64,000 nt of DNA from the NCBI GenBank assembly GCA_963729835.1, contig CAVSQF010000039.1, positions 295,486 to 359,485 of the forward strand, in the 5' to 3' direction. The stretch comes from an uncultured delta proteobacterium (GTDB taxonomy: Bacteria > Desulfobacterota > Binatia > HRBIN30). Below, piece after piece: positions 1,140 to 17,188 of the stretch; the first letter of the stretch is position 1; the number at the start of each line of letters is the position of its first letter. A model generated the notes under the pieces. It did no database searches and had not been told where the DNA came from. It worked only from the letters and a program-made list of their open reading frames with translations. The translations under genes were made by a program, and so were the position numbers.

Positions 1140-2042
1140 TCAACGGTCTTGTAATTCGAGCAGGTCGGCGCGTCGCAGGATCTCGATGAACTTGACCGCA
1201 GCCGGTGCCAGATGCCGTCCCTTCTTGTGAACGATGCCGAGCGGCCGCAGCAAGGTCTGGTCTGCCAGGTGGACGACCTTCAATGTTCCGTGTTCGAGCT
1301 CGTGCTGAACCGACGCGAGCGGGACAATCGCCATGCCCTGCCCGATCTCGGCGGCGCGTTTGATCGTCTCGATGTTGTCGTACTCACCGGCGTAGCGCAC
1401 AGTCAGATTGTGATCTTTGAAGAACTGGTCCGTGGCCTTGCGGGTCGAGATGTCGCGCTCATAGCCGACGAACACCTCCCCATCGAGGCACTCTGGCGAA
1501 ACCTTCTGCAACGCCGCAAAGACATGCTTGGGCGAGCAGACGATGACTAACTCGTCCTCGCGGAACGGGAGTACGTTGATCTGTGGATGCTTCGCAGGAT
1601 AGGCAACGATCCCCAAGTCCGTGCGCCCGGCGATCACGTCATCGTAGATTTTGTTCGGGCGCGCATACTCGACGTGGATGTTCACCTGCGGAAACTCGCG
1701 CAAGTACTCTTTCATGTAGGGCGGCAGTTCGTGCAGGCCGACGCTGTAGACGATCGCGACCCGCAACGAGCCGCTGACTACGTTTGCGGCATCCTGCAGC
1801 TGCGTGTCGATTTCGTGATACTTTTCCAAGATTTCCCGGCTGGCGCGATAGAGGATTTCCCCAGCCGGAGTGACCTTGGCGCCAGAGCGCCCGCGCTCGA
1901 GTAGCTTGCAATGGTATTTTGATTCGAGCGTGCGCAGCTGCTGGCTGACAGCGGACTGCGTAATGAAATTCTGCGAAGCCGCCGCCGAAAAACTGCCGGT
2001 TTCTACAACATCACAAAATACCTTGAGTGTCTCGATATGCAC
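1140..2042 (-). CDS. LysR family transcriptional regulator
   Basis: N-terminal HTH LKVFCDVVETGSFSAAASQNFITQSAVSQQLRTLE; 300 aa with LysR substrate-binding domain. Confidence 0.95.
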   Translation of the reverse strand: MHIETLKVFCDVVETGSFSAAASQNFITQSAVSQQLRTLESKYHCKLLERGRSGAKVTPAGEILYRASREILEKYHEIDTQLQDAANVVSGSLRVAIVYSVGLHELPPYMKEYLREFPQVNIHVEYARPNKIYDDVIAGRTDLGIVAYPAKHPQINVLPFREDELVIVCSPKHVFAALQKVSPECLDGEVFVGYERDISTRKATDQFFKDHNLTVRYAGEYDNIETIKRAAEIGQGMAIVPLASVQHELEHGTLKVVHLADQTLLRPLGIVHKKGRHLAPAAVKFIEILRRADLLELQDR

Positions 2043-2183
2043 GCGAGACTAGTTAGCAAAACTGATTGCAAAGTCAAGGCATCCGAATGCATTCTAATGT
2101 TGGTCTTCGAGGGGGGAGGCGTTTGGGAGGTGCCGTAGCCGCCGCATCCTTCTCCGCCCTGGCGGGCTAGTATTCTCTCCGGC

Positions 2184-2516
2184 TCAGTGATGCGGCACGC
2201 AACAGATGAACCGTAGGCCGTCGAGGCCGGCAACGAACTGATGTTCCTCGTGGGGCGCGAGGAACACGGAGTCTCCGGCGTGCAATGTGCGCTCACCATC
2301 CTTGCCGCGCACCATGCCGGTGCCGCCGAGAATGTACACTTCGTGTTCCCACTCGTGGGCATGGTAGGGCGTGTGGCCGTCGGGATCGAGCCGGAACACG
2401 CGCATGGCAAAGTGCGGCGCGCCCTCTCTCTCGGTGATCAGCGGGCGCATTTCCACGCCCTTCGCTTCGCCGCCATACGCAACCGGTTCGACTTGTTCCT
2501 GGTTCCGGACCAGCAT
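2184..2516 (-). CDS. Cupin domain protein
   Basis: Cupin motifs GHTPYHAHEWEHEVYILGG and GDSVFLAPHEEHQF. Confidence 0.9.
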   Translation of the reverse strand: MLVRNQEQVEPVAYGGEAKGVEMRPLITEREGAPHFAMRVFRLDPDGHTPYHAHEWEHEVYILGGTGMVRGKDGERTLHAGDSVFLAPHEEHQFVAGLDGLRFICCVPHH

Positions 2517-2760
2517 TGGTTACACCTCCGTGCGTGAACGATGATGAAACTATACCATACGGTACGGGTGGACACAGGTGTGCGACCAATGCGCGAGTCT
2601 TCTCGTTTCAGATCAACGCCCTCACCCAGATTTCCGCGCGCAACTTGCTTTTTCGCAGTGACCACATTTGTTGTCGCACGCCCGTAGACACAGCGGCGCG
2701 CCGCCGCTACTTTCCCGAGCCGGCGAATCATGCCATGGTACAGGGCCTCGATTCTGACGA

Positions 2761-2833
2761 GAGCCGTTAGCTCAGGCGGCAGAGCATCTGCCTTTTAAGC
2801 AGAGGGTCGCTGGTTCGAATCCAGCACGGCTCA
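2761..2833 (+). tRNA. tRNA-Lys (anticodon TTT)
   Basis: Acceptor stem GAGCCGT/ACGGCTC, D arm TAGCTCAG, anticodon arm TCTGC-CTTTTAA-GCAGA, T loop GGTTCGAATCC; no encoded CCA. Confidence 0.95.
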
Positions 2834-3996
2834 CTTTTTCCCCCTGGAATTTCAATCACTTCGGCACTACCACTTGCAGCGACCTTCGCGGGCGCCTCGC
2901 TGGTGTCAGTAGTGGTGTCAGTTGGCGCCTCTGTTTTGGGTCGGTTGAGCTTCTGTACGGCGTCGAGCTTGTGCGCCGGCGACAGGTGCGCATAGCGCAG
3001 GGTCATGGCCAGCGTCTTGTGGCCCATGAGTTCCTGAATCGTCCTGATGTCCGCCCCTGCCATGGCCAGCCGGCTGGCAAACGTGTGGCGCAGGTCATGC
3101 CAGCGGAAGTCTGTGATTCCCGCACTCTTGATTGCCGGCGAGAAGACCCGGTGCATGTAGTTCTTGGCGTCCAGGTGGGTGCTGCCTGTTTCACTGGGGA
3201 AGACCCACTCGGAGCGCAGGCGGCTCGGGAGCGCGGCGAGCAAGGCTCGCAGGTCGTCGTTCATCGGGATGGTGTAGTCCTCACCGGACTTGGACTTGCA
3301 TGCGCGAACGGTGCCCGTGTCAAAGTTCACGTCAGCCCACTTGAGCCGAAACTGATTGCCCTGGCGAAACCCGGTCAGAAACGCGAAAGCGACCTTCGGC
3401 CATTCCGTCTCACCGATCGCCTTGCGCAGTTTCGTTTCTTCGTCGTCGGTGAGGTAGCGGATGCGCTGATTGTTCTCCTTCACGAAGAGCTTGCTCAGAA
3501 CGGGGTTGGTGTCTGCCATACCGTCTTCGATCGCGACGTTGAAAACGCACCGGAGGAACGTGAGTTCCCGGTTCACACTTGCATCCGAGAGCTGTTTGCC
3601 GCGTAAGCGTGCGGCGCACCGCTCGACATCGCCGGGGAGGATGGCCCGCAGCGTTCGCTCACCAAGCGCCGTCTTCCAGTTACGCCCGTACCGCGCCCAG
3701 TTGACGAAGTTCTTCATCCGCCCTTTCTTGCGCGCCAGATAGTCGTCAATCATGTCCGCAAGCAGGACCTCCTTGCGGCGGATGCGCTCCGGGAAGAATC
3801 GCCGCTCTTGAATCTCGTTCTTGCGCTTCTGGTAGACCTTGAGCGCGAGCGCTTTCGGTCCGATCTTCTCCCGATGCTTGCGGCCGTTCTCGTCGAAGTA
3901 GCAGACCCACCAGATAGCTGAACCCGCCGGCCGCTCGAAAACGCCGCGCGTGTGCCGTTTAGCGCTTTGCTTGGGGCTTTCTTCGTTGTCGTTCAT
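2767..3996 (-). CDS. int: Tyrosine recombinase/phage integrase whose C-terminus runs through attL into the tRNA gene
   Basis: Catalytic set intact: TGFRQGN (R), KSG (K), WHDLRH (HxxR), LMGHK (H), TLRYAH (Y). N-terminal arm-binding-like WWVCYFDENGRKHREK. Probable start ATG 3996; stop TAA at 2767-2769 lies antisense inside the tRNA. Confidence 0.95.
   Translation of the reverse strand: MNDNEESPKQSAKRHTRGVFERPAGSAIWWVCYFDENGRKHREKIGPKALALKVYQKRKNEIQERRFFPERIRRKEVLLADMIDDYLARKKGRMKNFVNWARYGRNWKTALGERTLRAILPGDVERCAARLRGKQLSDASVNRELTFLRCVFNVAIEDGMADTNPVLSKLFVKENNQRIRYLTDDEETKLRKAIGETEWPKVAFAFLTGFRQGNQFRLKWADVNFDTGTVRACKSKSGEDYTIPMNDDLRALLAALPSRLRSEWVFPSETGSTHLDAKNYMHRVFSPAIKSAGITDFRWHDLRHTFASRLAMAGADIRTIQELMGHKTLAMTLRYAHLSPAHKLDAVQKLNRPKTEAPTDTTTDTSEAPAKVAASGSAEVIEIPGGKSEPCWIRTSDPLLKRQMLCRLS
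2792..2837 (+). repeat. attL core (46 bp, tRNA-Lys 3' half)
   Basis: CTTTTAAGCAGAGGGTCGCTGGTTCGAATCCAGCACGGCTCACTTT; identical to 11825-11870 and one mismatch from 15078-15123. Confidence 0.95.
2902..2927 (+). promoter_or_regulatory. Putative integrase arm-type binding sites (left arm)
   Basis: GGTGTCAGTAGTGGTGTCAGTTGGCG (two GGTGTCAGT units); exact 26-bp copy at 11686-11711 near attR. Confidence 0.75.
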
Positions 3997-4186
3997 GTCC
4001 GCTCTCCTCGAACAGCTCACACACCGGCACGCCCAGGGCCTTGGCGATCGCCGCGAGCGTTGCTCCCCGAACGTCCGTGCTCTTCCGTTCCGCGCGGGCA
4101 ATCGCCATGCGATGAATGCCGCTCAGCTCGGCAACCTCGGTGAGGCTCATCCCGCGCGCCTTCCGGGCTCGCTTGATGCTTTCCAT
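3959..4186 (-). CDS. XRE family HTH transcriptional regulator
   Basis: MESIKRARKARGMSLTEVAELSGIHRMAIARAERKSTDVRGATLAAIAKALGV; directly upstream of and overlapping int. Confidence 0.9.
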   Translation of the reverse strand: MESIKRARKARGMSLTEVAELSGIHRMAIARAERKSTDVRGATLAAIAKALGVPVCELFEESGHERQRRKPQAKR

Positions 4187-4198
4187 GTCACAAAGCTT

Positions 4199-4225
4199 AG
4201 TAACGCATGCACTACTGATTGTCAA
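4199..4225 (-). promoter_or_regulatory. Putative xre-int promoter with an operator palindrome
   Basis: Minus-strand TTGACA (4220-4225), 17 bp spacer, then TACTAA. Imperfect palindrome AGTA-nn-GCATGC-nn-TACT (4199-4216) overlaps the spacer and -10. Confidence 0.5.
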
Positions 4226-4292
4226 GCTTGGCACCGTGTGCCTTGCACCGTGTGACGCCGAGCGCCTAGAATGCCGCGTGAAGGTGAGCGGC

Positions 4293-4517
4293 ATGCAGAT
4301 CGGCATCGAGTTTCGTCTTCCGGCGCGGATTCGGAAGAAAGGCAAGTGGTACGTCTCATCGTGTCAGCCGCTCGATGTCCATTCCCAAGGTCACACCAAG
4401 GCAGAGGCCCGCCGGAATCTCGCTGATGCGCTGGTGTTCTTTTTGGAAAGCTGCGTTCGTCGGCAAACGCTCGGGGATGTTTTGCCCACGTCGGGATTTT
4501 GTGTGAATGCCCATTGA
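4293..4517 (+). CDS. HicB-like antitoxin domain protein
   Basis: KKGKWYVSSCQPLDVHSQGHTKAEARRNLADALVFFLESC fits the HicB partial RNase H fold signature (SQGxTxxEAxxNLxxA). Confidence 0.8.
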   Translation: MQIGIEFRLPARIRKKGKWYVSSCQPLDVHSQGHTKAEARRNLADALVFFLESCVRRQTLGDVLPTSGFCVNAH

Positions 4518-4827
4518 CCGCACGCTGCTCGAAAGAGCCTATCGCCGGCCGCAAGAGTAAGAAGCGATCCCTGCTATACCGCCGTACTCGTACCGCGTAT
4601 TCTGGTCGCCCGAAGACCGCGAGTTTGTCGCGACGTGCGTCGACGTTCCAGGCTTGTCCGGTCTGGCGCCGACTGAAGCCGGGGCGATCGACGAGTTGAA
4701 GGTGGCCATTGGCGGGTGGCTGGAACACCTCTCCGAGCAAGGGACACAGTGGCCTGAGCCGAACCCCACTGCGTTCACGGACGCCGACACGGTCACGCAT
4801 CCTACCGCCGAAGCCCGTCACGGCTGA
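4507..4827 (+). pseudogene. Second HicB-like antitoxin, interrupted by an in-frame TAA at 4558-4560
   Basis: Not in the ORF track. Manual translation after the stop: PPYSYRVFWSPEDREFVATCVDVPGLSGLAPTEAGAIDELKVAIGGWLEHLSEQGTQWPEP, a typical HicB pattern. The only in-frame ATG (4507) precedes the stop. Confidence 0.75.
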
Positions 4828-5033
4828 CCCGGGCCCGCCACGGACCGCAGCGCCGGCCGTTCCGAGTCGGCAATCAGCTTCTCAATCGTGCTGAGCTTGA
4901 AGCGCAGCGCGCGGCCAAAGAGCTTCACCACGGGGATGCGCCGCTCATAGGCCCACTGGTAGAGCGTGCACGGCCTGAGCCCGAGCATCCCCGCTGCTTC
5001 GTTCACGTCGAGCAGGCGTTCTTCCATGCTCAT
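4818..5033 (-). CDS. Excisionase-like (MerR-type HTH) DNA-binding protein
   Basis: LLDVNEAAGMLGLRPCTLYQWAYERRIPVVKLFGRALRF. Confidence 0.85.
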   Translation of the reverse strand: MSMEERLLDVNEAAGMLGLRPCTLYQWAYERRIPVVKLFGRALRFKLSTIEKLIADSERPALRSVAGPGQP

Positions 5034-5058
5034 TGGCGAGTGCCTTTGCGCTTGGCGT

Positions 5059-5418
5059 TCATGCGGCCTCTGGCCCCGGTTCGGTGTCAGGTGCGGTCTT
5101 GGTATGCACTGGCGCCCGTTCGGTGCTCAAACTCGCGTCTACACGGGCTCTACGGCGCAAAAACGCCGGGTTCTGACGGGTGCCCGGCTTGCGGTTGAGC
5201 CCCCACCGGAAATTCGCCAACGGCATGCGGTACTCGCGGCCGTGCAGCTCGCCCGTCCGGCGCCGGCTCTCGCACACCGGCTTGAGTCCCAGCTTGAGCA
5301 GCCGCCGCAGCACCACCGGACTGGCTGACCAAAGGACAACGGTCTTGTCCTCTTCGTCCCAGCGGATCACGGTTTCCCGCTCGGCGGCCGTCAGGCCCTT
5401 CGGCAACTCAACGGTCAT
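5059..5418 (-). CDS. Hypothetical mobile-element protein
   Basis: Overlaps the upstream replication gene by 4 bp; LTAAERETVIRWDEEDKTVVLWSAS resembles small phage/ICE proteins. Confidence 0.6.
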   Translation of the reverse strand: MTVELPKGLTAAERETVIRWDEEDKTVVLWSASPVVLRRLLKLGLKPVCESRRRTGELHGREYRMPLANFRWGLNRKPGTRQNPAFLRRRARVDASLSTERAPVHTKTAPDTEPGPEAA

Positions 5419-6596
5419 GCAGCACTCTCAGTCATCGCGCCACGCAATGTGCGCAACGCGATCAGACACGCTGCGAGTTTGCGCGCGTTCTCGTTCTGCA
5501 CCGTGACGAGAAGCCACGTCACGACATGCGGAAGCGGATCACTCATCACGAGCCGCGCCCCGCGCCGACGGCGACACAGGGAGTCGATGACGTCAGCAAA
5601 CCGTTCGCGATCGTGTGCGTGTTCGCGCTGTTGTCTCTGCATTCGATCGAACGTCAGCACTGGCTCCTGCCCACTTTTTCGCCAGCCGGCTGGTTCACGC
5701 ACGACGTAATCCTTGAGCTTGCCGTTGAGCAGGCGCGTCACTGCACTGCGATCGCAGCCAAGCTGCCGTGCCAGGCCCGCGGCGGTCACCGCGCGGTCTG
5801 TTGCCAGTACCCGCCAGACCCTGCGTGCGGTGAGCCCGAGTCCACCTCGACGCCACGCATCAGCTGTCACCGTGTTGCAAGACGACACATTAAAACTCAC
5901 CTCGGGTGAGGACCTGATGTTGCAAACTTGCTCATTAAGGCTCGCTAGAGGGGCTTCATTAGTGTGTCGATTTTGCAACACGGACATGGGACGCCTGAGA
6001 TGCCAGAGACTGGACTTCGTTTTCAGTTCGTTGCCTGACTTGATGATGTTGTAGCTGCCGCGCCGCAGTGGCTTGAGCCAGCCGCGGCGACGCAGGCGTG
6101 CGGCTGCGCTAGCGACCGTGCGAAAACTCTCGATTCCTGCCCGCTCGGCGACCTGCCGGAGTGATGCTTCGAATTCGACGCGCCCGCACAGAAAGGCAAC
6201 GCTGTAGAGCCCGTGCAGGACTGCGAGGTCTGTACTCGCAGACCGCCCGCGCCACGGCACGCTGAGAGATAGCTCGTAGAGCTGATTGATGTGTGCCCGG
6301 CAGCCGTCGAAAATCTCCCGACTCGCGGCACCCGCGCCGTTCCCGGCGGGCTTGCGTGCGATGTTCTTGACGATGCGCTCGACATCTCTCGACGGCAGCG
6401 GCGGTACACAGCACGTTCTGTTGATCTCATGCAGAACCGCGCCCAGGGTGGCCGCGTCGTGACCTTCCCAGCGCAAGCGACCAGCGACTTTGACAAGCGT
6501 CACGTGTCGCAGCGCCGCGATCGGACTTTCAGCGTCGCGAAAGCGCGTGATGAGTGCGGCGATATCACTGCGAGTCGCGCTCATCGCCACCACCAC
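5415..6596 (-). CDS. Replication protein with primase C-terminal (PriCT-1-like) domain and C-terminal HTH
   Basis: LHEINRTCCVPPLPSRDVERIVKNIAR (PriCT-like); LRQVAERAGI and AGLARQLGCDRSAVTRLL HTH-like segments; follows alpA as in PICI-like elements. Confidence 0.65.
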   Translation of the reverse strand: MVVAMSATRSDIAALITRFRDAESPIAALRHVTLVKVAGRLRWEGHDAATLGAVLHEINRTCCVPPLPSRDVERIVKNIARKPAGNGAGAASREIFDGCRAHINQLYELSLSVPWRGRSASTDLAVLHGLYSVAFLCGRVEFEASLRQVAERAGIESFRTVASAAARLRRRGWLKPLRRGSYNIIKSGNELKTKSSLWHLRRPMSVLQNRHTNEAPLASLNEQVCNIRSSPEVSFNVSSCNTVTADAWRRGGLGLTARRVWRVLATDRAVTAAGLARQLGCDRSAVTRLLNGKLKDYVVREPAGWRKSGQEPVLTFDRMQRQQREHAHDRERFADVIDSLCRRRRGARLVMSDPLPHVVTWLLVTVQNENARKLAACLIALRTLRGAMTESAA

Positions 6597-6756
6597 CCCT
6601 CATCCACGCCTCGATGTCTGCCGCGCTCCACCGCACCGCGCGAGCTGACACCCGCCGCCGTGCGGGAAAGCGCCCAGCGCGTTCGAGCCGGTCGATTGTG
6701 CCGCGAGAAATTCCTGTCCGCTCTTCGACTTGTCGAAGGTTCAGTAAAGTGTCCAT
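6565..6756 (-). CDS. alpA: AlpA family phage regulatory protein
   Basis: MDTLLNLRQVEERTGISRGTIDRLERAGRFPARRRVSARAVRWSAADIEAWM. Confidence 0.9.
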   Translation of the reverse strand: MDTLLNLRQVEERTGISRGTIDRLERAGRFPARRRVSARAVRWSAADIEAWMRGGGGDERDSQ

Positions 6757-6803
6757 GCGCGCGTAGTTTGGCACACGCGCATGAGCAGTAGCCGGCTTAC
6801 TGC

Positions 6804-7505
6804 TCAGCCTTCCCAGGGTTTTCTTGCCGCCTTCAGATAGCCGCGGAAGGTGTCGTAGGTGATGCTGCGCTCACGGCCGGTACGGTCCTCCACCTCAACG
6901 AGTTTGTTACCGTCCCGGTAGATTTCAAACGTGTGACCATTCACGTGAATGGCCATGGGTCGGTCCTTGGGCTGCTTCAGCTCAGGGATTGATTTCCAGG
7001 CTTCGGCGACGGTGAGCGTCGGACTGGCCTTCACCAGATCGCACACCCGCTGCCAGATACCTGGCAAGCGCTTTGGGGCGCGTCCACCTTTGCTCGGGAA
7101 CTCCAGTTCTCGTTGCTCCAATCGCCTACGCACGTGGGCATCGCTCTCAAGCTGAAGTTCCAGGTATTTGCGCAGTCGTCGCGCACCCGGCGTTCTGTCA
7201 TGTGACAACTTCTCAACGTGTTCGGCGATCTGTCGTTTCAGTTCGGTGATCTTCTGACGTGGGTCGGGCTGCAGGGGGACTTCTGCAGCATCGATGACAC
7301 TCCGTATGTAGCGGCGCGAGCGCCGCGCCTCGGTTGACGTGTCACCTTCCAGTTCGTTGAGTCGGTCCACCAACCTGCGGCGCTGCTCGGGATCTCTTGC
7401 CCTGTCAATGTCCGCGTGAAACTCGTCCCAGGCCCCTTGAAGGTCAGCCCATGCCTCCTCCGTTGGCGTGTTGTGCCAAACCTCTATCGGGTGCCGATCG
7501 GACAT
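6804..7505 (-). CDS. Hypothetical protein (coiled-coil, basic C-terminus)
   Basis: 233-aa ORF with GGAGG RBS before ATG 7505, protein-like composition, co-oriented with alpA. Confidence 0.7.
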   Translation of the reverse strand: MSDRHPIEVWHNTPTEEAWADLQGAWDEFHADIDRARDPEQRRRLVDRLNELEGDTSTEARRSRRYIRSVIDAAEVPLQPDPRQKITELKRQIAEHVEKLSHDRTPGARRLRKYLELQLESDAHVRRRLEQRELEFPSKGGRAPKRLPGIWQRVCDLVKASPTLTVAEAWKSIPELKQPKDRPMAIHVNGHTFEIYRDGNKLVEVEDRTGRERSITYDTFRGYLKAARKPWEG

Positions 7506-7791
7506 TGCACCTCCACGAAGTGCCCACGGGAAGGAAAGCGCCGCGGCGGCCCGCCGTGGAAACGGGTGTTCGGTGATCGGCCTAGCTGCGGTGCATGTCG
7601 GCGCTCACGCTACCGCAACGCGGCCACTCAACGCAAACCACGCGCCGCGTTGATTGAGCGATCGTTTAGCACATCACCCCTGCGCATGTCGCGCTCGCAA
7701 GAAACATCCCATCCGCAAATTGGGCTCACAAAGCCACCACCTACGGCACGGGCGGAGACTGTCGATGCTGGCCCAGTTCGCGGCGCCCACT

Positions 7792-8010
7792 TCACGGACT
7801 AAATGCCGTGCACATTCCGGTGCTTCCGTTACACGAGGCATTCCAGATCACTGTGCAGCCCACTGCACAAGCCCCGTTGCGGACCGGGCCGCACGCTGAA
7901 GTGGTGCACTGGCAACAGTCGTTCGCCCTGGGGGCTGAGTCGGTGTGGCTGTCGGCGTAGGGGATGGAGTCGGGGTCTCTGTCGGGGTCACCGTTGGTGA
8001 GAAACGGGTA
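7792..8010 (-). pseudogene. Fragment of a PT-linker plus Cys-rich surface protein
   Basis: One frame gives [24 protein letters not shown], and a shifted frame continues ANDCCQCTTSACGPVRNGACAVGCTVIWNASCNGSTGMC; no credible N-terminus. Confidence 0.55.
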
Positions 8011-8123
8011 TGCTTGGACGATAGCACTATCAATCCGCTGACAGATCACCTGGTACGCATCCTCTTTGCCGGTCCGCTTGCCGTAAAGTTTTCGGCTTCG
8101 TAAGCGGAGCATTGATGCCGCAG

Positions 8124-11100
8124 TTAGCTTCGGTGAAGGACTGGCCGTGGCGCTAGGCGACGGCGCAGTCGGTGCAACACGGCGGCCGCGACAAGGAGCC
8201 AGGCCGCACTTGGTTCCGACGACCCCGGCGTGAGCCTGCAGCCTCCCCCTCCACCACTTTTTGGAGGGACCGGCATTGGCGTCTGCGTCGGGGCCAGGAG
8301 CGTCGGCGTAGCGGCTAGTTGCACAACAATATGGCCAGGAGAAAGTGGGCTTACCTTCAGTGTTGTCGGCTGCTGATTCTCGGGTTGCCCCACGACCTGG
8401 ACATTGTCGGGATTGAGCGCGATGTCACCCGCCGCCATCGGGGCGATACCCAAGTCGAGCGCTAAGACCGAACCACTGCCAGCCGGGATAGTCTGGGTAC
8501 CTAGTAGACTGATGAGCCCAACATTCATGGTTCCATTCGTTTGTTGCTGGAATTGGGGCGACAGTGTTGCAGCGCGTCCGATGGCCTGGGCATTCTTCAA
8601 CGTCAGAGCGCTAGGTACAGACGGAGACAAGGCCACTTGGATGCCGAGCACGTCTGCTTGATTGTCGAGCCCCACTTCCACGATAACATCCGTTCCCGAG
8701 CGAGCCTGGGTGCTGGGGAATGTCACGGTAGCAGTGGCGGTACCGGGAACGACGGCGGTGCAGTCTTGTGGGCACGCCGGGAGGCTCCAGAGGATCACGT
8801 CGGCGATCGCCAGGCAGTCAACAAACGACACCGGGGCATCCCCACAGGTCATGTGGGACACGGTACACTGCCACGACGGCGGGTTATTGCGCCCGATGCT
8901 GCAATCGATGCAAGTGGAAAGGTCAACGGCGTTCGTCGCGCCATCCCCATTGGCGTCGCCTCTGCATGCGCAATGCAACCAACCGTCCTGCGTTGTCACA
9001 GTAAGTGCCGTTCCAACCTGGGGAACAATGGTCGTCGTGGTCGGGTCCAGTTGCAGCTTCGTTTCGTGGCCGGGGCTACATTCGGGTGGCGCATCGTCAA
9101 CGTACAGCGTTGCGATCTGGCCCTTTCCTGGAGCGATGCCGCCGGAGCCCATCAACACCACACCAATCTTGCCCCCGAACGAGCTGGCGTTGCACGTGAG
9201 CCTGGTCACGCGCGAGGAAGGCGAGGTGTCGACAGCACAGGGCTGTTCGGTGCTCAGGCTGATTTCGTTTGGCACGTTCGTCAGGGTAAAACTCATGGTG
9301 CTGACGATGACGTCGTTAGTCAGCAAGATTGGAATTGCAGCCCGCTCACCAGCCGGGAAGAGAACGGCATCGCCAATGCCCAGTACTGCAGATCTCGGCA
9401 TCAGCGTCCAGGTCGGCGTGGGCGTGGGCGTGCTGGTGGGTAGCCGCGTTTGAGTCGGCGTGGCAGTGAAGGGCGGCGTCCATGTGTGTATCGCTGTCGT
9501 TGTTGGTTTGGGGGTCGGACCGCCGATCACAACTGCCCCGCTCTCGCCAACGACCCCGGAGATAGCGCCACCATTCGGATCGCTCATCCCAAGGCCGCTG
9601 ATGGCCACAACCGACGTGCCGCTGGCAGTTGCCGCGATGTTGACGTTGCAGGTGTAGAGCACCGACCCATCAACGATCGCGTCCGTGTTGTCGAGTGCCA
9701 GGACGAGCGCCTTCACGGCATTGCAGGCGCTGCCGCTGCAGCCCGGCGGCTGCAGCGCGAAACTGGTCCCACCCTTGTCGATGGCCGGGTTGACGGTGCA
9801 GTCGGGTTTGCCCTTCGCATTGAGATTCAGCGTAACGTTGGTATTGTCAAACGTGAGGGTGTTTGCTGTGCCGGCCACTTGAGCGCCGCCGGAGAACAAG
9901 GTCACGCCCAGCGGCGCCACCTGCTGCCCCGGACTGGCGTTGACGATATCGACAATGAGCGCGGGTCCTGGAGGCGTCGGGCGCGGCGTCGGCTGCCCTG
10001 TGGTCGGTGTCGCTGTGGCTTCCGCCGTCGTCGGGGTCGGACCGCCGATCACAACTGCCCCGTTCTCGCCAACTACACCGGAGATGGCGCCACCATTCGG
10101 GTCGCTCATCCCAAGGCCGCTGACGGTCACGGTCGACGTGCCGCTGGCAGTCGCCGCGATGTTGACGTTGCAGGTGTAGAGCACCGACCCATCAACGATC
10201 GCGTCCGTGTTGTCGAGTGCCAGGACCAGCGCCTTCACGGCATTGCAGGCGCTGCCGCTGCAGCCCGGCGGCTGCAGCGCGAAACTGGTCCCACCCTTGT
10301 CGATGGCCGGGTTGACGGTGCAGTCGGGTTTGCCCTTCGCATTGAGATTCAGCGTAACGTTGGTATTGTCAAACGTGAGGGTGTTTGCTGTGCCGGCCAC
10401 TTGAGCGCCGCCGGAGAACAAGGTCACGCCCAGCGGCGCCACCTGCTGCCCCGGACTGGCGTTGACGATATCGACAATGAGCGCCGGCCCTGACGGCGTC
10501 CGGCGCGGCGTAGCCGTGGGCGGCATTGGGCTGATCACAACTGCCCCGCTCTCGCCAACGACCCCGGAGATAGCGCCACCATTCGGATCGCTCATCCCAA
10601 GGCCGCTGATGGCCACAACCGACGTGCCGCTAGCCGTTGCCGCCACATTGACGTTGCAGGTGTAGAGGACCGACCCGTCCGGAATCGCGTCCGTGTTGTC
10701 GAGTGCCAGGACCAGCGCCTTCACGGCATTGCAGGCGCTGCCGCTGCAACCCGGCGGCTGCAGCGCGAAACTGGTCCCGCCCTTGTCGATGGCCGGGTTG
10801 ACGGTGCAGTCGGGTTTGCCCTTCGCATTGAGATTCAGCGTGACCTTGGTATTGTCAAAGGTAAGGGTGTTCTGTGTGCCGGCGACTTGCGCACCGTTCG
10901 AACTCAGCGTGACGCTGATCTGCACCTGAGAGCCCGGAGCCGCACTCGCCACATTGCTGACTGTCAGTGACTGCGCCTGCGCCACCGCCACACCGAAGCT
11001 GAGCGCTCCCGCGATGACCACAGCGGTGACCAAAGGGGCGATCGCCGCTCTACGACTTGCTCGACTCCGGAAACAGATCCCGAATCGGAATACCAAACGC

Positions 11101-11297
11101 CTTCGCGGTGTCCGCGATGACCCGCAGTGTCGGATTGCGCTCGCCACGTTCGATCCCTCCAACGTAAGTCCAATGGCGGTCCATGCGCTCGGCAAGCTGT
11201 TCCTGACTCCAGCCCCGAGCCTTGCGCAGGGACCGCACGCGTTCTCCGAACGTCTTCTGGACCGGTCGCACGGTCCAGAGGACTCCCCCAGACGCAC
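8124..11297 (-). CDS. Large secreted scaffoldin-like protein: about five cohesin-like domains, one dockerin-like loop, GlyGly-Cys/TM/Arg C-terminal sorting signal
   Basis: Signal peptide ending AVAQA (true start probably near 11040-11100). Three near-identical ~145-aa beta-rich repeats (VTLSSNGAQVAGTQNTLTFD...GSVLYTCNVNV) and two more divergent cohesin-like domains, PT linkers, CRGDANGDGATNAVDL, and C-terminal SGGGGGCRL...AAWLLVAAAVLHRLRRR. Confidence 0.8.
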   Translation of the reverse strand: MRLGESSGPCDRSRRRSENACGPCARLGAGVRNSLPSAWTAIGLTLEGSNVASAIRHCGSSRTPRRRLVFRFGICFRSRASRRAAIAPLVTAVVIAGALSFGVAVAQAQSLTVSNVASAAPGSQVQISVTLSSNGAQVAGTQNTLTFDNTKVTLNLNAKGKPDCTVNPAIDKGGTSFALQPPGCSGSACNAVKALVLALDNTDAIPDGSVLYTCNVNVAATASGTSVVAISGLGMSDPNGGAISGVVGESGAVVISPMPPTATPRRTPSGPALIVDIVNASPGQQVAPLGVTLFSGGAQVAGTANTLTFDNTNVTLNLNAKGKPDCTVNPAIDKGGTSFALQPPGCSGSACNAVKALVLALDNTDAIVDGSVLYTCNVNIAATASGTSTVTVSGLGMSDPNGGAISGVVGENGAVVIGGPTPTTAEATATPTTGQPTPRPTPPGPALIVDIVNASPGQQVAPLGVTLFSGGAQVAGTANTLTFDNTNVTLNLNAKGKPDCTVNPAIDKGGTSFALQPPGCSGSACNAVKALVLALDNTDAIVDGSVLYTCNVNIAATASGTSVVAISGLGMSDPNGGAISGVVGESGAVVIGGPTPKPTTTAIHTWTPPFTATPTQTRLPTSTPTPTPTWTLMPRSAVLGIGDAVLFPAGERAAIPILLTNDVIVSTMSFTLTNVPNEISLSTEQPCAVDTSPSSRVTRLTCNASSFGGKIGVVLMGSGGIAPGKGQIATLYVDDAPPECSPGHETKLQLDPTTTTIVPQVGTALTVTTQDGWLHCACRGDANGDGATNAVDLSTCIDCSIGRNNPPSWQCTVSHMTCGDAPVSFVDCLAIADVILWSLPACPQDCTAVVPGTATATVTFPSTQARSGTDVIVEVGLDNQADVLGIQVALSPSVPSALTLKNAQAIGRAATLSPQFQQQTNGTMNVGLISLLGTQTIPAGSGSVLALDLGIAPMAAGDIALNPDNVQVVGQPENQQPTTLKVSPLSPGHIVVQLAATPTLLAPTQTPMPVPPKSGGGGGCRLTPGSSEPSAAWLLVAAAVLHRLRRRLAPRPVLHRS
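9513..10920. repeat. Three near-identical intragenic DNA repeats encoding the cohesin-like domains
   Basis: GATCACAACTGCCCC recurs at about 9525, 10047 and 10533 (spacings 522 and 486 bp) with long identical stretches between copies. Confidence 0.9.
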
Positions 11298-11301
11298 CCA
11301 C
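11050..11301 (-). CDS. XRE HTH regulator resembling restriction-modification controller (C) proteins
   Basis: FGERVRSLRKARGWSQEQLAERMDRHWTYVGGIERGERNPTLRVIADTAKAFGIPIRDLF; start probably the GTG near 11271. Confidence 0.85.
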   Translation of the reverse strand: MGASGGVLWTVRPVQKTFGERVRSLRKARGWSQEQLAERMDRHWTYVGGIERGERNPTLRVIADTAKAFGIPIRDLFPESSKS

Positions 11302-11303
11302 TC

Positions 11304-11322
11304 CGTCTAGAGACTATGAGTA
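11304..11322 (-). promoter_or_regulatory. C-box-like operator upstream of the C-like regulator
   Basis: Minus strand TACT-CAT-AGTC-TCTA-GACG resembles the C-box arrangement GACT-N3-AGTC-N4-GACT; second half degenerate. Confidence 0.55.
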
Positions 11323-11685
11323 TTACTTCACCGGCCGGCCAAAGTGCAAACCGCCGGCACTGCTGCCCCATATCACAACCACCGGGAGGTTGAACACCCG
11401 CTATTTCAAGCGCAAGCACGTGAGCACCGGATTCAGTCCGTTCGCGCATCCTGGGGCATTCTCGCCGCCATGGCACACAACGCGTTTCTCCTCTCACCCG
11501 TTCCCTGCGATTGGATCGGCACCCGGCCCGAGTCGGCGCCGACGACGCCATGCGGCGACCCGACGCTCGACGGGCACGTCCCCCCCCAGCGGGTCGGGCG
11601 CTGCACTGTGCCCGTGACTGTGCCCACGACAGTCCAGACAGTGCACCTGAGCGCATTTTGTGCGTCATGCTCGGAGCGGAGGCGC

Positions 11686-11711
11686 GGTGTCAGTAGTGGT
11701 GTCAGTTGGCG
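11686..11711 (+). promoter_or_regulatory. Putative integrase arm-type binding sites (right arm)
   Basis: Exact 26-bp copy of 2902-2927, about 115 bp inside attR. Confidence 0.75.
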
Positions 11712-11824
11712 ATCGAAAATGACCGCAATTGGTCGAAAGAGGTCGAAGGATCGCACCGCGATATATCCAGCAAACACGCGGAAACCCGCGTCAGTCCTGC
11801 TTTTCCTCATCATCCTTGGGCGGT

Positions 11825-11870
11825 CTTTTAAGCAGAGGGTCGCTGGTTCGAATCCAGCACGGCTCACTTT
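11825..11870 (+). repeat. attR of element 1 / attL of element 2 (tRNA-Lys 3' fragment)
   Basis: 46-bp exact copy of 2792-2837; lacks the tRNA 5' half. Confidence 0.95.
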
Positions 11871-11886
11871 CCTTTTCGCGTACTTA

Positions 11887-12793
11887 GAGCCTATCCCAAA
11901 ACATCAAGCTGTGATATATAATGCCGACCGGTTTGTCTCCGGTGAGGAGGGTGTGGGGTGGAGAAGACAGGGGGAGTGGTCGAGAGGTTTCGGCTCCCGG
12001 AGCAGATGTGGCTAGTGTTGGAGGGGCTACTGCCCAAAGGCCGGCGGCGCAATCGGCGCAAGGGGGGACGGCCGCCGCTGGATCGGCGGCGCGTGGCGGA
12101 CGCCATCTATTATGTGCTGCGCACGGGCATCCAGTGGAAGGCGTTGCCGCGGGAGTTGGGGGCCGGCAGCAGCGTGCATCGCTACTTCCAGCAGTGGCAG
12201 CGGGCGGGCGTGTTCGAGCGCCTGTGGGCGAGCGGGTTGGTGGAGTACGACGCGCGCAAACACCTGCAGTGGACCTGGCAGAGCATGGATGGCGCGATGG
12301 TGAAGGCCCCCCTCGGTGGGGGAAAAAACCGGCCCCAATCCCACGGACCGCGCCAAAGGCGGCACCAAACGCTCGGTGCTCGTCGATGGCGCCGGGGTGC
12401 CCATCGGCCTGGTGATTGATGGGGCCAACGTCCACGACAAGTGGCTGCTGGCACCGACCTTGGCCAGCATCCCGATCGACCGGCCGGCCCCGTGCCCGGG
12501 CGCGCCCCAACACCTGTGTCTCGACAAGGGATACGACTACCGGGACATCCGTGAATTGGTAGCGCTCAACCACTACATCGCTCACATCAAGGCGCGGGGT
12601 GAAGAGGTCGTGCTCAAGAAGACACGGGGCTTCAAGGCCCGGCGGTGGGTGGTGGAACGTACGCATTCTTGGTTCAACCGATTTCGCCGGATCCTGATTC
12701 GATGGGAAAAGAAGCCCCAGAACTATCTCGCAATGTTACACCTCGCCTGTGCCTACCTGGCGTATCGGGTAGCGGGGGTTTTGGGATAGGCTC
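11887..12793 (+). mobile_element. IS5 family insertion sequence (IS427/IS1031-like), 907 bp
   Basis: Perfect 16-bp terminal IRs GAGCCTATCCCAAAAC (11887-11902) and GTTTTGGGATAGGCTC (12778-12793); flanking TA duplication (11885-11886, 12794-12795). Confidence 0.92.
11958..12789 (+). CDS. IS5 family transposase, two ORFs joined by a probable programmed -1 frameshift
   Basis: OrfA IYYVLRTGIQWKALP...SVHRYFQQW...SMDG; OrfB GTKRSVLVDG...LCLDKGYD...RWVVERTHSWFNRFRR; slippery GGGGGAAAAAAC at about 12318-12329. Confidence 0.9.
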
Positions 12794-12795
12794 TA

Positions 12796-12989
12796 AGCCG
12801 TGACGTTGCGCGCGACGGGGCCGATTTGACAGCCAAATTGACAGCCACCGGGTTAGAAACGCGCATGGGCTCAAGGGCAGCAAGCTTCGCAACGTTCTGC
12901 GGCACCAGATCCCATTTCACCGCACGGTTGAGGGCGCGACTCAACACAGCGCGCAGGTACTGCACGGACGGCGGCGGAACGCTTTGCAT
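12796..12989 (-). pseudogene. Internally deleted tyrosine integrase remnant of element 2
   Basis: VQYLRAVLSRALNRAVKWDLVPQNVAK (core-binding domain) joined directly to C-terminal NPVAVNLAVK; catalytic domain missing; tandem TTGACAGCCA repeats at about 12826-12847 look like arm sites. Confidence 0.7.
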
Positions 12990-13124
12990 TTGATGAAGGT
13001 CTGCACGTGCTGCGGCGCCAGCTTCGCCAGCAGAATCTTGCCAAGTGCCGGGCCTGGGCTTTGCGTCTGGAAGCCGACCGCCGGATCGGATCTGGTCCCT
13101 TGGGCTGCCATGGATGGAATATGT

Positions 13125-14849
13125 TCAGGAAAGGTGACAAATTAAATACAGGACGGGCGATCTCCGGCAGTTACTACGCGTGCTCACTTTATCGCCCGTA
13201 GGCATGTGGGTGGTCACCGAGACTGGATTCAGAGGAACCTGCAGCCCGGTGTCAGCGCTTGCCATTCTGATGCGCCGTACAAAGAAGTTGTAGCGCAGCG
13301 GACCCCTTAGGACGAACAGTGCAAAGGTATTGCCACTGCTGCACCTAATCGCACCTAGCACCGAGCGGCAACCGCTCAGCGGCATGCTCACGCCAAAAGA
13401 GCTGGGGTCGTGTACCTCGACAACGACACTGTCCGCAAGCAACGCACTGGTCAGATCGGCCCCGATGTCCTCGCGCACTTGAAAACGCAGCCACGCCATA
13501 CCGATGTGCGTGCGCGACGTTAAATTGCTGCGCAGGATTGCCCACGTCAATCGGAGCGGGGGGATCGTTGCCGTCGGGGTCGCGGTTAGCGTGTTCGTTG
13601 GCGTTGCCGTCGGGGTCTTCGTCGGCGTCGGCGTCGGCGTGTCGGTCGGCGTCTTCGTGTTGGTTGGCGTCTCGGTCGGGGTCGCAGTCGGGGTGTCGGT
13701 GGGCGTTTCTGTTGGCGTGGCCGTCGGCGTGCTGGTCGGTGTTTGAGTCGGCGTTGCCGTCGGGGTCGCGGTTAGCGTGTTCGTTGGCGTTGCCGTCGGG
13801 GTCTTCGTCGGCGTCGGCGTCGGCGTGTCGGTCGGCGTCTTCGTGTTGGTTGGCGTCTCGGTCGGGGTCGCAGTCGGGGTGTCGGTGGGCGTTTTTGTCG
13901 GCGTGGCCGTCGGCGTGCTGGTCGGTGTTTGAGTCGGCGTTGCCGTCGGGGTACTCGTCGGCGTTCGCGTTCCGGTTGGTGAGCTGGTAGGCGTCGCCGT
14001 CGGCGTGTTGGTTGGGGTTGCCGTCGAAGTGCTCGTCGGCGTGGGCGTCGCCGTCGGCGTGCTGGTGGGCGTCGCCGTCGGCGTGTTGGTTGGGGTTGCC
14101 GTCGGCGTTTGGGTGGGAGTCAGCGTGGGAGCGGGCAGGAACAGTTTGGTGCTTCCCTGCGCACCCGCGGTGGCACAGGTGCCGCTGGCAGAACACGCCT
14201 CAAGATCGTCGGGCCCGGTTGCCCCACGGGTAAAGAAGGCGCCGTTACCGGAAACTGGTTGAGTCGCGGTGGAGTTTATTGTTGCCAAGTCCTGACTGCC
14301 CCCAGCCGGAATCGACACGCCCCCGGGGCACATGGCGATCAGCACCGTATTGCCGGTAACGTCGGCGGGATCCAACGCGCACGAACACACGCCTGCTGCC
14401 AAATTGGAGCAGCCCGTAAACGTCAAAATTCCGACCAACGGCTGGGCGCAGGCGCTGTCGGTGCACACCAGTTTGACGCGCACCCCGGTGCCCTGGGAAC
14501 CCGTCGGCGCGCACACCGTATTGGGGCTGACGGTGCAGTCGCTCCCCTGACTACAGGTCTGTGCCGAGCAACTGACGGCCGCCGTCGACGTGCAACACGT
14601 GCCTTTGCTGGTCAGCGTCACCGCAACCGGAGCGGTGCCATCAGAGCCCGTATTGGCTGATGTGTTTTTGATGCGGATGATCTCTTGCACCGAGCTCCCG
14701 GGGCTCAGTATGGAGCTATTAAGGAACACCGATATTGATCCGCTGGCTTGAACGGCATCCGCTCGGCGGCCCAGCAATCCGAGGCCGATCACAAGCGCGA
14801 TCCGCATACTCCATCGGACCATAAAAGACACGCGCGTCTGTCTATCCAT
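13125..14849 (-). CDS. Secreted protein with Cys-rich N-terminal domain, long Pro/Thr linker and C-terminal beta domain
   Basis: Signal-like [18 protein letters not shown]; about 190-aa TPTATPT linker. Confidence 0.8.
13566..13951. repeat. 186-bp tandem duplication in the PT linker
   Basis: 62-aa unit [15 protein letters not shown]...TNTLTA repeated twice, nearly identical in DNA. Confidence 0.85.
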
Positions 14850-15077
14850 TAAAATGCCCCCCCAGAAGCCTGCGGAAGTCAGTTCTTGGCCAGTTCCGCA
14901 ATGCCACTTCCCCCGCGTGCATACCTGGACAGGAAGTATCGCACGCTGCAAGGACTGAGTCCAGACGCCGAGGTAACGGACACAGGGGCCGATTCTGAGG
15001 CACGTGCCAGCACGGTGGGCATTGAATTTCAGACGATATATCACGCCACGATGCAGTGCAGACGGCGCCCGACTGAT

Positions 15078-15123
15078 CTTTTAGGCAGAGGGTCGCTGGT
15101 TCGAATCCAGCACGGCTCACTTT
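15078..15123 (+). repeat. attR of element 2 (third tRNA-Lys 3' fragment)
   Basis: 46-bp copy with one mismatch (TTTTAGG vs TTTTAAG). Confidence 0.92.
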
Positions 15124-15193
15124 GTTTCGCTCAGTGGGTCAAACAACTTCGGGGTGAATGGGCTGTCTGGCACAGCGGCCGTTGCCTGCAGTG

Positions 15194-17188
15194 TCAGTGA
15201 CAGTTGAGATTCGCGGCGTTCCCGTCGCAACGCGGGCGCACGCTGCCGGGCGGGTTCCACTCGACCGCCGCGCACTCCGTCGGGTTGCCGACGACCACCA
15301 CCGCGCGCACTTGGTGGACGTCGGGCAGGGTGACGCTGCCGCGGCGCCCGCGCACGACCCAGTGGAGCAAGCCAGTAGTGCGGGCCGAGAGATCCTGAAT
15401 TACGAGGTAGGTGATTCCGCCGTGACTGCCGCCGGCGTCGGTATAGGCCCACCGCGTCCCGGCGCGATTCACCCTCCACCCCGGCACGCCGCGACCGGCG
15501 GCGCCGCCCGGGATGACGACGTCGAGGCCGCCAGGGCCGGTGACGCCATCGATCACGATGCGTACGCCGTTGACCAGCGGCTCCACGCCCTGCCAGGGCT
15601 TGGGAATCACCGCCCCACCGGCAAGCTGCAGCGAGAACGGACTTGATCGCAGTCGCATCGACGGCTTCTGTATGCTGATGCCGCTGTCGCACGCCGGCAC
15701 GTTGCTGCACTGGCAGTTGCGACATATCTGGCCGCTGCCGCAATCGGTGTCCTTCTCGCACTGCTCGTTGCCGCACACGATCCCGTCACCGCACACCGGC
15801 GGCGCCATGGCGCAGATGCAGTTCAGGCAGGCCGTGCACGGATCGGCGCACGACAGCCCGGGCTCGCCGCACTGCTCGCCCAGATCGACGACACCGTTGC
15901 CGCAATTCGCGAGCTGGCTCTCGTAGGCGCCGACGTCGTAGCCCGTCCCGACCGGCCGCGGGTTGTCGTCGAGGTCGTTGGCAGGCGCGTCGGTAGCGGT
16001 CCCGGCATCGATGGCCGGGCTGCCCGCCTTGAGATGAAAGTCCGTGCCGGGGACGAGGAAAAGGTCCGCCGGCGTGGCGATGAACGAGTGGGTGTCGTAG
16101 CCGAGGCCTTGCCACGTGGGCAGGTCGATCACCGTATCGCCCTGGTCGATGCTGAAGCGGCTCATGACGCTGTTGTAGTCGGTGACGAACCCGGAGCGGC
16201 TGGAGGCGTCGATGCTGATCACGCCGTGCCATGAGTGCTCGTTGTACAGGATGTTGTTGAGGACCGTGTTACCGGTGGAGCCGGTGTTGATGTTCACGCA
16301 CCAGCGGCCGTCAGCGGCGTTGAGGATGGTGTTGTTGACGACCAGGTTGCCGGTGGCGCCGGTGGCGCCGTCGATCTGGTACAGGCTGATTCCACTGGCA
16401 TGGTTGTCGTAGAGGAGGTTGTTTTGGATGACGCTGTTGACCACGCCGTCCATGTTGATGCCCGAGCCGCCGCCGGCACCGTTACCGTAGACGGTGTTGC
16501 GCTCGACGAGAGCGTTGGCGATGAGGCCGGTGCCGCCCTGGCTGAGGTCGCCGTTCATGTGGATGCCGGCAGCGTAGTTGTCGTGCACGAGGTTGCCGCG
16601 GATCACCGGCCGCACGCAGGCGTTGGAGACGTAGATGCCATGTTGCTGCTGCGAGTGGTGGGCTTCGTTGAACTCGATGTGGAAGTCATCGGCAAAGCCG
16701 CTGAAGATGCCCCACGTGCCATTGTAGCCGGTGTGGCAGTTACGCACGGTGACGAACTGCGACAGGGCGGTGCGGATGCCGGCGCGCGTGCGGTTGTTGA
16801 CGATGAAGCCGTCGATGACGACGTAGGCCGCGCCCTCGACGTTGATGCCGTCGGGCGTGCTGCCATTGTCGGCCGTGATCTGCACCGCTGAGCCGTCGGC
16901 GACGAAGGTGATGGGGTTGCCCGATGAGCCGGAGCGGCTGAGGTAGAAACCCTGATAGTTGCCGTTCTCGACGTGCACCGTATCGCCGGGGTTGACCACA
17001 TTCGCCGCATGGCCGAGCGTGGCCCAAGCCGTGGGCAGCGACAGGCCGTTGGCGCCGTCATCACCGCCGTTGGCCACGAAGTAATCAGTGGCCGCTGCCC
17101 GGCCGGCGACCAGCACAATCAAGGTCGCAATCACCCACCACCGCACGCGATGAGTTCTGTCAGTGGCTCGGGGTGTGGACAGACACAT
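15194..17188 (-). CDS. Secreted right-handed parallel beta-helix (pectate lyase-like) protein with Cys-rich repeats
   Basis: TDYFVANGGDDGANGLS...PGDTVHV, Asn/Gly beta-helix repeats, DFHLKAGSPAIDAG...YDVGAYE, CGNGVVDLGEQC repeats. Confidence 0.85.
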   Translation of the reverse strand: MCLSTPRATDRTHRVRWWVIATLIVLVAGRAAATDYFVANGGDDGANGLSLPTAWATLGHAANVVNPGDTVHVENGNYQGFYLSRSGSSGNPITFVADGSAVQITADNGSTPDGINVEGAAYVVIDGFIVNNRTRAGIRTALSQFVTVRNCHTGYNGTWGIFSGFADDFHIEFNEAHHSQQQHGIYVSNACVRPVIRGNLVHDNYAAGIHMNGDLSQGGTGLIANALVERNTVYGNGAGGGSGINMDGVVNSVIQNNLLYDNHASGISLYQIDGATGATGNLVVNNTILNAADGRWCVNINTGSTGNTVLNNILYNEHSWHGVISIDASSRSGFVTDYNSVMSRFSIDQGDTVIDLPTWQGLGYDTHSFIATPADLFLVPGTDFHLKAGSPAIDAGTATDAPANDLDDNPRPVGTGYDVGAYESQLANCGNGVVDLGEQCGEPGLSCADPCTACLNCICAMAPPVCGDGIVCGNEQCEKDTDCGSGQICRNCQCSNVPACDSGISIQKPSMRLRSSPFSLQLAGGAVIPKPWQGVEPLVNGVRIVIDGVTGPGGLDVVIPGGAAGRGVPGWRVNRAGTRWAYTDAGGSHGGITYLVIQDLSARTTGLLHWVVRGRRGSVTLPDVHQVRAVVVVGNPTECAAVEWNPPGSVRPRCDGNAANLNCH

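Follow-up and report, generated by a model that had tools for sequence, protein, structure and literature searches.

The integrases of Myxococcus phage Mx8 and of the SSV viruses extend across attP, as described in the Islander paper (PMC4383910). In Mx8, a review of the subject describes attP as lying in int, with integration creating a new int 3′ end and altering the specificity of the prophage enzyme (PMC6070905). SSV-type archaeal integrases are likewise described as having the att site within the integrase gene (PMC8371274), and in mycobacteriophage BPs attP is described as lying inside the repressor gene rather than int, with the viral form of the repressor carrying an ssrA-like tag (PMC4557955). 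The principle of an int gene read across attP is therefore already known. Here we describe a small mobile island of ~9 kb from an uncultured Binatia bacterium, contained in a stretch of 64,000 nucleotides (nt) of contig CAVSQF010000039.1 (hereafter the window, to which all coordinates refer). Judged from the joined sequence of the island ends, the complete int gene of this element exists across attP only, i.e., in the excised circle, and integration exchanges its C-terminus.

The island is inserted in a tRNA-Lys gene (anticodon TTT), the single tRNA that ARAGORN reported for the window, and is flanked by exact 46-bp repeats (Table 1). The repeat starts at the first base of the anticodon loop (tRNA position 32) and stops 3 nt beyond the tRNA 3′ end; a whole tRNA stands on one side of the island and a displaced 3′ fragment on the other, with the block of identity running from the anticodon loop. 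Such a repeat is the signature of anticodon-loop insertion into a tRNA gene, and islands with an anticodon-loop crossover are defined as a class (the Islander 'A' site) in PMC4383910. The int and tRNA-Lys genes are convergent and overlap by 68 nt. The int frame has no stop ahead of the core and, in the integrated (attL) form, ends as ...SEPCWIRTSDPLLKRQMLCRLS*, antisense inside tRNA-Lys, the last eight residues (RQMLCRLS) coming from the antisense 5′ half of the tRNA. With the attR-side DNA joined to the core in silico, the same open reading frame (ORF) instead ends as ...KRPPKDDEEKQD*, its stop codon being the TCA at positions 11791–11793 (minus strand, leftward of the attR core). The reading of int through the core, its antisense end in tRNA-Lys, and the excised-form end had all been proposed in a first-pass annotation of this DNA; every coordinate proved correct on recomputation, and ORF translation, the exact 46-nt repeat, and the in-silico join agree in placing the attP core inside int, where integration alters the C-terminus. 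The core occurs a third time, with a single mismatch, at positions 15078–15123, and the DNA adjoining it, read in the int frame, gives no acidic tail of the kind described below.

The prophage ORF retains residues 1–401 unaltered, including all catalytic residues. Pfam family PF00589 (Phage_integrase) matched the protein with E = 1.9e-29, the domain stopping at residue 341, and the tyrosine recombinase catalytic set (R211, K236, H300, R303, H326, and Y335) is present and invariant among 42 homologous sequences. The catalytic domain ends near residue 341–350, after which the frame runs for ~55 residues that take in TDTTTDT, the core translated as SEPCWIRTSDPLLK, and RQMLCRLS*. In the AlphaFold model of the protein, the mean predicted local distance difference test (pLDDT) score was 78 while residues 356–409 scored below 50, and the ~55-residue C-terminal tail is predicted to be disordered. 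Read from the nucleotide sequence, the codons of this disordered tail come from the P arm and core of the element itself and from the beginning of its P′ arm.

A protein search scored 7,998 candidates, of which 4,882 qualified as homologs at E ≤ 0.001. In the 120 best homologs (54–100% identity), the RY.H motif is followed by 55 or more residues in 115 cases and by an early stop in five (P0017, P0053, P0084, P0095, and P0101), and 106 of the 120 contain a peptide resembling an antisense T-arm, derived from several different tRNAs. At the DNA level, we pooled genome contigs, metagenome contigs, and 35 regions fetched from 401 same-class genomes (35 of which hold an Int homolog at E ≤ 1e-60), yielding 49 non-redundant loci at an identity of at least 44%; in 40 of these, an antisense tRNA lies no more than 600 nt from RY.H. 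Between RY.H and the 3′ end of the tRNA, the int frame stays open in 37 of the 40 loci, the exceptions being L197, L193, and L164, compared to 7 and 5 of the 40 for the other two frames (Fisher p = 5e-17, on related loci that are not independent). Read-through, whose conservation the first-pass annotation had named as a check, is the rule in this set, with most homologs not stopping before the core, and by these sequence comparisons it is selected rather than accidental.

More distant relatives (32–41% identity; L022, L026, L027, L028, L043, and L062) stop 4–64 nt ahead of the repeat, indicating that the att-spanning layout belongs to one clade and not to every relative. We also noted that distant relatives at 35–40% identity in Omnitrophota and Planctomycetota loci (e.g., L026, L029, and L042) have a same-strand tRNA after int, with int usually terminating a few nt short of it. 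At a further locus (L144, 35% identity), which we set aside for its other layout, the ORF enters the sense 5′ half of a same-strand tRNA (tail ANPDISHTPTETSSTDDKKPK), a 95-nt repeat covers the ORF end, and the island is in reversed orientation. The best genome matches were metagenome-assembled genomes (MAGs) of Candidatus Binatia. Among IMG/VR viral contigs, there was no relative above 43% identity and no excised phage-like form, and all 510 matching phage records fell below 60% identity, the 25 matches listed lying at 28–32%. On one contig of a Binatia MAG (L009 and L172+L184), two islands of the family face each other, one int running antisense into tRNA-Arg(ACG) and, ~450 nt off, an opposite-strand int running antisense into tRNA-Met.

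The C-terminus encoded by the circle was reconstructed in other elements by scanning the upstream DNA for a second copy of the ORF 3′ end and then reading the ORF across the junction. Of the 41 non-redundant loci at an identity of at least 44%, 11 yielded an attR, as did L113 (37%); most loci without a located attR have too little upstream DNA, and the metagenome relatives, being on short contigs or having int at the contig start, yielded no further attR. In all 12 elements (island sizes of 5.3–12.6 kb), the circle-form ORF ends in frame 5–20 codons beyond the core, with the tails RPPKDDEEKQD, SGVKDDDEKQD, PIQDDEEKPD, SEVKDDEPPSE, SGIPGDDDEPENS, SASDDDDETLV, SADEDDDETLV, RLKDDPFDKD, SQTEPTDENGD, PDPDE, NKTPEE, and SLPEGSTTDDDQQGRTEKTN. 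Asp and Glu account for 54 of the 130 residues in these tails (41.5%), compared to 34 of 633 (5.4%) and 20 of 355 (5.6%) in the second and third frames of the same DNA (p = 1e-26) and 10 of 119 (8.4%) in the integrated-form tails (p = 1e-9). The targets comprise at least seven tRNAs: Lys-TTT, Met-CAT (five elements), Arg-TCG, Arg-ACG, Arg-TCT, Val-TAC, and Cys-GCA. The acidic attP tail, whose conservation was another check named in the first-pass annotation, is therefore conserved across elements at different tRNAs.

This conservation is compositional, with approximately five distinct tail types. Related tails differ chiefly at third codon positions (e.g., GAT GAT GAG versus GAC GAC GAC), a pattern indicating that selection maintains the peptide and not a DNA motif, and the retention of both the spanning layout and the short acidic end (5–20 residues) across other tRNAs argues that the circle-form C-terminus is translated and under selection. 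The integrated-form tails, on the other hand, are set by the tRNA target and are not conserved. Three candidates were not counted: L014 was discarded as spurious (15-nt att match, E = 0.001, tail 'RL'), and L017 and L166 were set aside given in-frame stops upstream of the core.

Gene calls in the databases offer a view of naturally occurring ends. We classified the tails of the 120 best homologs and 13 further proteins by matching them against ten tRNA-derived motifs; 78 carry on as antisense tRNA, while the other 20 depart from it at the crossover. Short acidic endings occur in five of these 20 departing tails (P0019, P0022, P0051, P0099, and P0122), and P0055, outside the ten motif groups, is an additional circle-type ending. 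Over its whole length, P0051 shares 87% identity with the circle form of L175 joined in silico, and this extends to the tail (SAIPDDEEEPTNV versus SGIPGDDDEPENS), which validates the L175 join despite an att match of 17 nt.

Both arms of the reconstructed attP contain a tandem 9-bp repeat with a 12-bp period, located ~80–90 nt before the core (inside the ORF) and ~115–130 nt after it. The repeat was detected in 11 of the 12 elements in each arm, and its motif covaries between elements (ACTGACACC, ACTGCCACC, ACCGGCACC, and AACCGGGAG). These putative arm-type sites double as codons (TDTTTDT, TGTTTGT, and TATTTAT), a dual coding that constrains the protein tail and the DNA sites together. At the other end of the protein, the Int model has beta strands (residues 29–46) plus a helix, i.e., an N-terminal domain of the arm-binding type, and Foldseek matched the model to full-length lambda Int (1z1b) over 356 columns (E = 3.5e-13) as well as to Tn1549 Int (E about 1e-13). 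Like lambda, the element combines a full-length fold match that includes the N-terminal arm-binding part with repeated sites in both arms, and together these indicate a lambda-type integrase with predicted binding to arm and core sites.

Several smaller features of the tail and arms were noted. Three TTCGA(C/T) motifs lie ~10–20 nt apart between the circle-form stop and the P′ repeats (window 11712–11750), at positions conserved over most of 11 aligned P′ arms, and may be sites for the HTH_17 protein, the HTH_3 protein, or a host bending factor. The peptide A-E-V-(V/I)-(E/D)-L-P (window 2864–2884), nine codons ahead of the tRNA 3′ end, is present in 14 of the 31 tails listed and displaced or varied in a few further ones, with diverse Leu codons (CTG, CTT, TTA, CTA, TTG, and CTC); the motif might serve as a short functional peptide within the disordered tail, or else reflect a DNA site close to the core. 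Antisense tRNA-Met is read in two frames by different elements (...DLGIM/RPSL versus ...PRDYE/TLALA; e.g., L169 versus L173, the L009 minus strand, and L014), the third frame being interrupted by a TGA within the anticodon loop. Since the core has to be translated, the usable combinations of tRNA and frame may be restricted, limiting target switching to tRNA segments and frames without an antisense stop.

As described for Mx8 IntP/IntX, the attP core of the present element lies inside int, and integration yields a new 3′ end and a prophage isoform. The Mx8 Int record also shares a stretch that resembles an antisense T-arm (...STGLEPV...). It differs in having ~110 residues after the core, as taken from that record, whereas 5–20 acidic residues follow it here, and Mx8 is a 49.5-kb phage rather than an island of 5–13 kb. 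The integration target of Mx8 is a tRNA-Asp gene, and 112 C-terminal residues of its Int are reportedly replaced by 13 on integration. For SSV-type elements, integration is described as splitting the gene into two parts thought to be inactive; in the window, the catalytic protein is still encoded whole after integration and the extreme C-terminus alone changes, and the SSV-type 'suicidal' arrangement was accordingly not what we found.

The likeness to BPs, as far as that system is described, is an attP within an ORF and a protein whose C-terminus changes on integration, and in BPs its behaviour with it. The ORF in BPs is the repressor, with a prophage form shorter by 33 residues, whereas here it is int; the HTH_3 gene of the island is intact and distant from the core. 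The ends also differ, the circle-form tails being acidic with D, E, V, S, or N as the last residue and the BPs viral end being ssrA-like. In the lambda sib system (PMC2951348), integration similarly changes what stands 3′ of int, but attP lies outside the int ORF and the mRNA 3′ region alone is affected, while the present ORF itself spans the core together with the P arm and some of the P′ arm. The precedents invoked in the first-pass annotation are genuine: those of Mx8 and SSV are as the Islander paper describes (PMC4383910), and the att-dependent C-terminal tag of the mycobacteriophage is that of a repressor and not of an integrase (PMC4557955).

The best overall explanation is, in our view, an att-spanning int with a functional tail swap, at a probability of roughly 0.6. 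In the circle, as joined in silico, the int ORF crosses the P arm (with the repeats read as TDTTTDT), the 46-bp core as antisense tRNA-Lys, and ~30 nt of the P′ arm, finishing in the conserved acidic peptide KDDEEKQD*. Integration at the tRNA-Lys anticodon loop cuts int and leaves a prophage isoform ending in the tRNA-derived RQMLCRLS*, and the swap would make the two Int isoforms functionally different. By analogy with Mx8 IntP/IntX, the acidic circle form would be the integration-proficient enzyme, and the prophage form would be altered, e.g., poorer at attP × attB, yet able to excise with the HTH_17 protein; the outcome would be an element biased towards staying integrated. The first-pass annotation had proposed a lock of a related kind, in which the circle form would be stable and the integrated form may be degraded or less active. 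The structural part of this explanation (attP inside int and an acidic end that the circle alone encodes) is in our judgement very probable, whereas a functional asymmetry between the two isoforms, argued from analogy, has somewhat less than an even chance. More tentatively still, the acidic tail might be a recombination-encoded directionality switch common to as many as several thousand related integrases from uncultured phyla, whereby the circle alone would encode an integration-competent Int and the tail-swapped isoform of the inserted copy would be unable to re-integrate, or unable to admit a second copy, and would excise only with its HTH_17 partner; in this full form we consider the idea doubtful.

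Several observations weigh against the tail-swap explanation. The 12 elements are kin and their tails fall into some five types, such that the statistics above overstate independence; two of the tails are weakly acidic (NKTPEE in L191, 2 of 6 residues; PDPDE in L182, 3 of 5), and the att match is short in L175 (17 nt) and L186 (19 nt). The other 15 of the 20 departing endings in the gene calls are non-acidic and of varied length, though these may be tandem arrays or decayed sites, like the third core copy in the window. Given a disordered tail whose prophage version is arbitrary with the tRNA target, the enzyme may tolerate any end. Mx8 Int shows no detectable homology (BLASTP E = 0.14 and 1.4, with 21% identity over the recombinase fold) and is absent among the 25 phage matches listed, which suggests convergence on one design and means that the biochemistry of Mx8 may not transfer. 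Lastly, three public DNA runs (Logan contigs; word shares of 0.25, 0.20, and 0.00) gave only short low-depth pieces on positions 1500–16000, and no attP or attB joint (2838 to 11824 or 11870) was seen in these low-coverage contigs; the joints that they did show fall in proline/threonine-rich (PT-rich) repeats, and the run search listed no RNA data set with this DNA. A search for an empty attB through the gene on the right flank reached its orthologs in four members of the family; the loci fetched contained no tRNA, and no empty site was identified.

A more economical possibility is compaction only, where attP is carried on the 3′ end of int, the two isoforms are equal, and the acidic end is at most of slight, unspecific advantage (e.g., better solubility or reduced non-specific DNA binding). 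The predicted disorder of the Int tail suits this account, as does the spread of the family over many tRNA targets despite prophage tails that are arbitrary tRNA-derived peptides; the islands are moreover tiny, with int and small HTH genes as their only conserved part. A neutral end, however, would not be expected to remain short and so rich in Asp and Glu in every one of the 12 elements while third codon positions change, and the conserved acidic tail makes a purely neutral overlap less likely; we regard compaction alone as unlikely. It is a good deal less probable that regulation acts on the RNA rather than the protein, with integration stripping int of its stop codon and 3′ stem-loop and aiming the transcript antisense into an active tRNA gene. 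The prophage int mRNA would then be unstable or collide with tRNA transcription, in a mirror image of lambda sib retroregulation. In both the window and L169, the circle-form stop is indeed followed at once by a GC-rich stem-loop, the downstream P′ arm is conserved as DNA, and int and the tRNA converge with their 68-nt overlap. Still, the stem-loop is not evident in every element and has no T run, and the codon-level conservation of the acidic peptide is left unaccounted for. An RNA-level effect is nonetheless compatible with the tail-swap explanation rather than exclusive of it.

The remaining alternative is an artefact, i.e., a chance open frame or an assembly error, with the real Int ending soon after the catalytic tyrosine. 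At a GC content of about 60%, long chance ORFs are common, and positions 2838–2960 are thinly covered by public read sets, too little for a base check. The openness of the int frame over the other two frames, the long tail in 115 of the 120 best homologs, and the way in which this frame leads across the core into a conserved acidic end in every one of the 12 elements speak against it, and the frame counts together with the tails effectively refute it.

An int gene that runs through attP has so far counted as a peculiarity of Mx8 and SSV, whereas the present comparison shows it to be the conserved layout of a large clade whose members occur in MAGs of Binatia, Myxococcales-like bacteria, Nitrospirota, and others. 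What appears to be new is the clade-wide scale in small islands of uncultured lineages, the use of arm-type sites as codons, and a conserved acidic micro-tail that the excised form alone can encode; a full-text literature search found no description of this integrase family or of these three features. The swap of about 10 residues, free of phage biology, offers a simple system for testing whether a recombination event can rewrite its own recombinase and so set directionality. On the practical side, deposited integrases of this family mostly bear false, tRNA-derived C-termini, and island finders must permit the overlap of int with the tRNA gene.

Table 1. Coordinates of the island features in the window (strand '.' where neither applies).
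Feature	Positions	Strand	Basis or remark
tRNA-Lys (anticodon TTT), integration target, regenerated at attL	2761..2834	+	ARAGORN
int, integrated (attL) form, 409 amino acids (aa)	2767..3996	-	ATG at 3996 to TAA at 2767-2769 within the tRNA; translation, Pfam, alignment, fold
attL copy of the 46-bp core	2792..2837	.	Repeat search; minus-strand translation (K)SEPCWIRTSDPLLK(R)
Putative P-arm arm-type site, tandem 9-bp repeat ACTGACACC N3 ACTGACACC (int strand)	2902..2927	.	Inside the int ORF; encodes TDTTTDT
HTH_3 (XRE-type) gene	3959..4186	-	Overlaps int start by 38 nt; kept in 7/12 islands; Pfam, comparison
HTH_17 protein, 71 aa, candidate excisionase/directionality factor	4818..5033	-	Kept in 10/12 islands; comparison
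Variable cargo, not common to the islands	5034..11685	-	Comparison of 12 islands
Cargo: PriCT_1/wHTH protein, 393 aa	5415-6596	-	
Cargo: ORF of 233 aa	6804-7505	-	
Cargo: repeat-bearing ORF of 1057 aa	8124-11297	-	
Putative P′-arm arm-type site, exact second copy of the 26-nt tandem repeat	11686..11711	.	113 nt from the core
Short GC-rich hairpin directly downstream of the circle-form stop	11776..11791	-	Minimum free energy folds, P′-arm alignment; putative function
Last 11 codons and stop of circle-form int	11791..11824	-	With 2 core nt, encode RPPKDDEEKQD*
attR copy of the 46-bp core	11825..11870	.	Repeat search

Only three genes are common to the 12 islands, namely int (in all 12) and, at the frequencies given in Table 1, the HTH_17 and HTH_3 genes. 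Within the variable cargo, the 1057-aa ORF matched no Pfam family above threshold; it contains three copies of a ~300-nt repeat (93–100% identical; 9511–9810, 10033–10332, and 10519–10818), spaced by 522 and 486 nt, plus Pro/Thr-rich linkers.

Beyond the island, the 3.2 kb between the second and third core copies (11871–15123) contain a frameshifted transposase of the IS4/IS5 family (11958–12789) and a PT-rich ORF of 639 aa (13125–15044), with no integrase in this stretch, which resembles what is left of a second, tandem island. The ORF of this neighbouring remnant is similar to the 1057-aa cargo ORF in its PT-richness.

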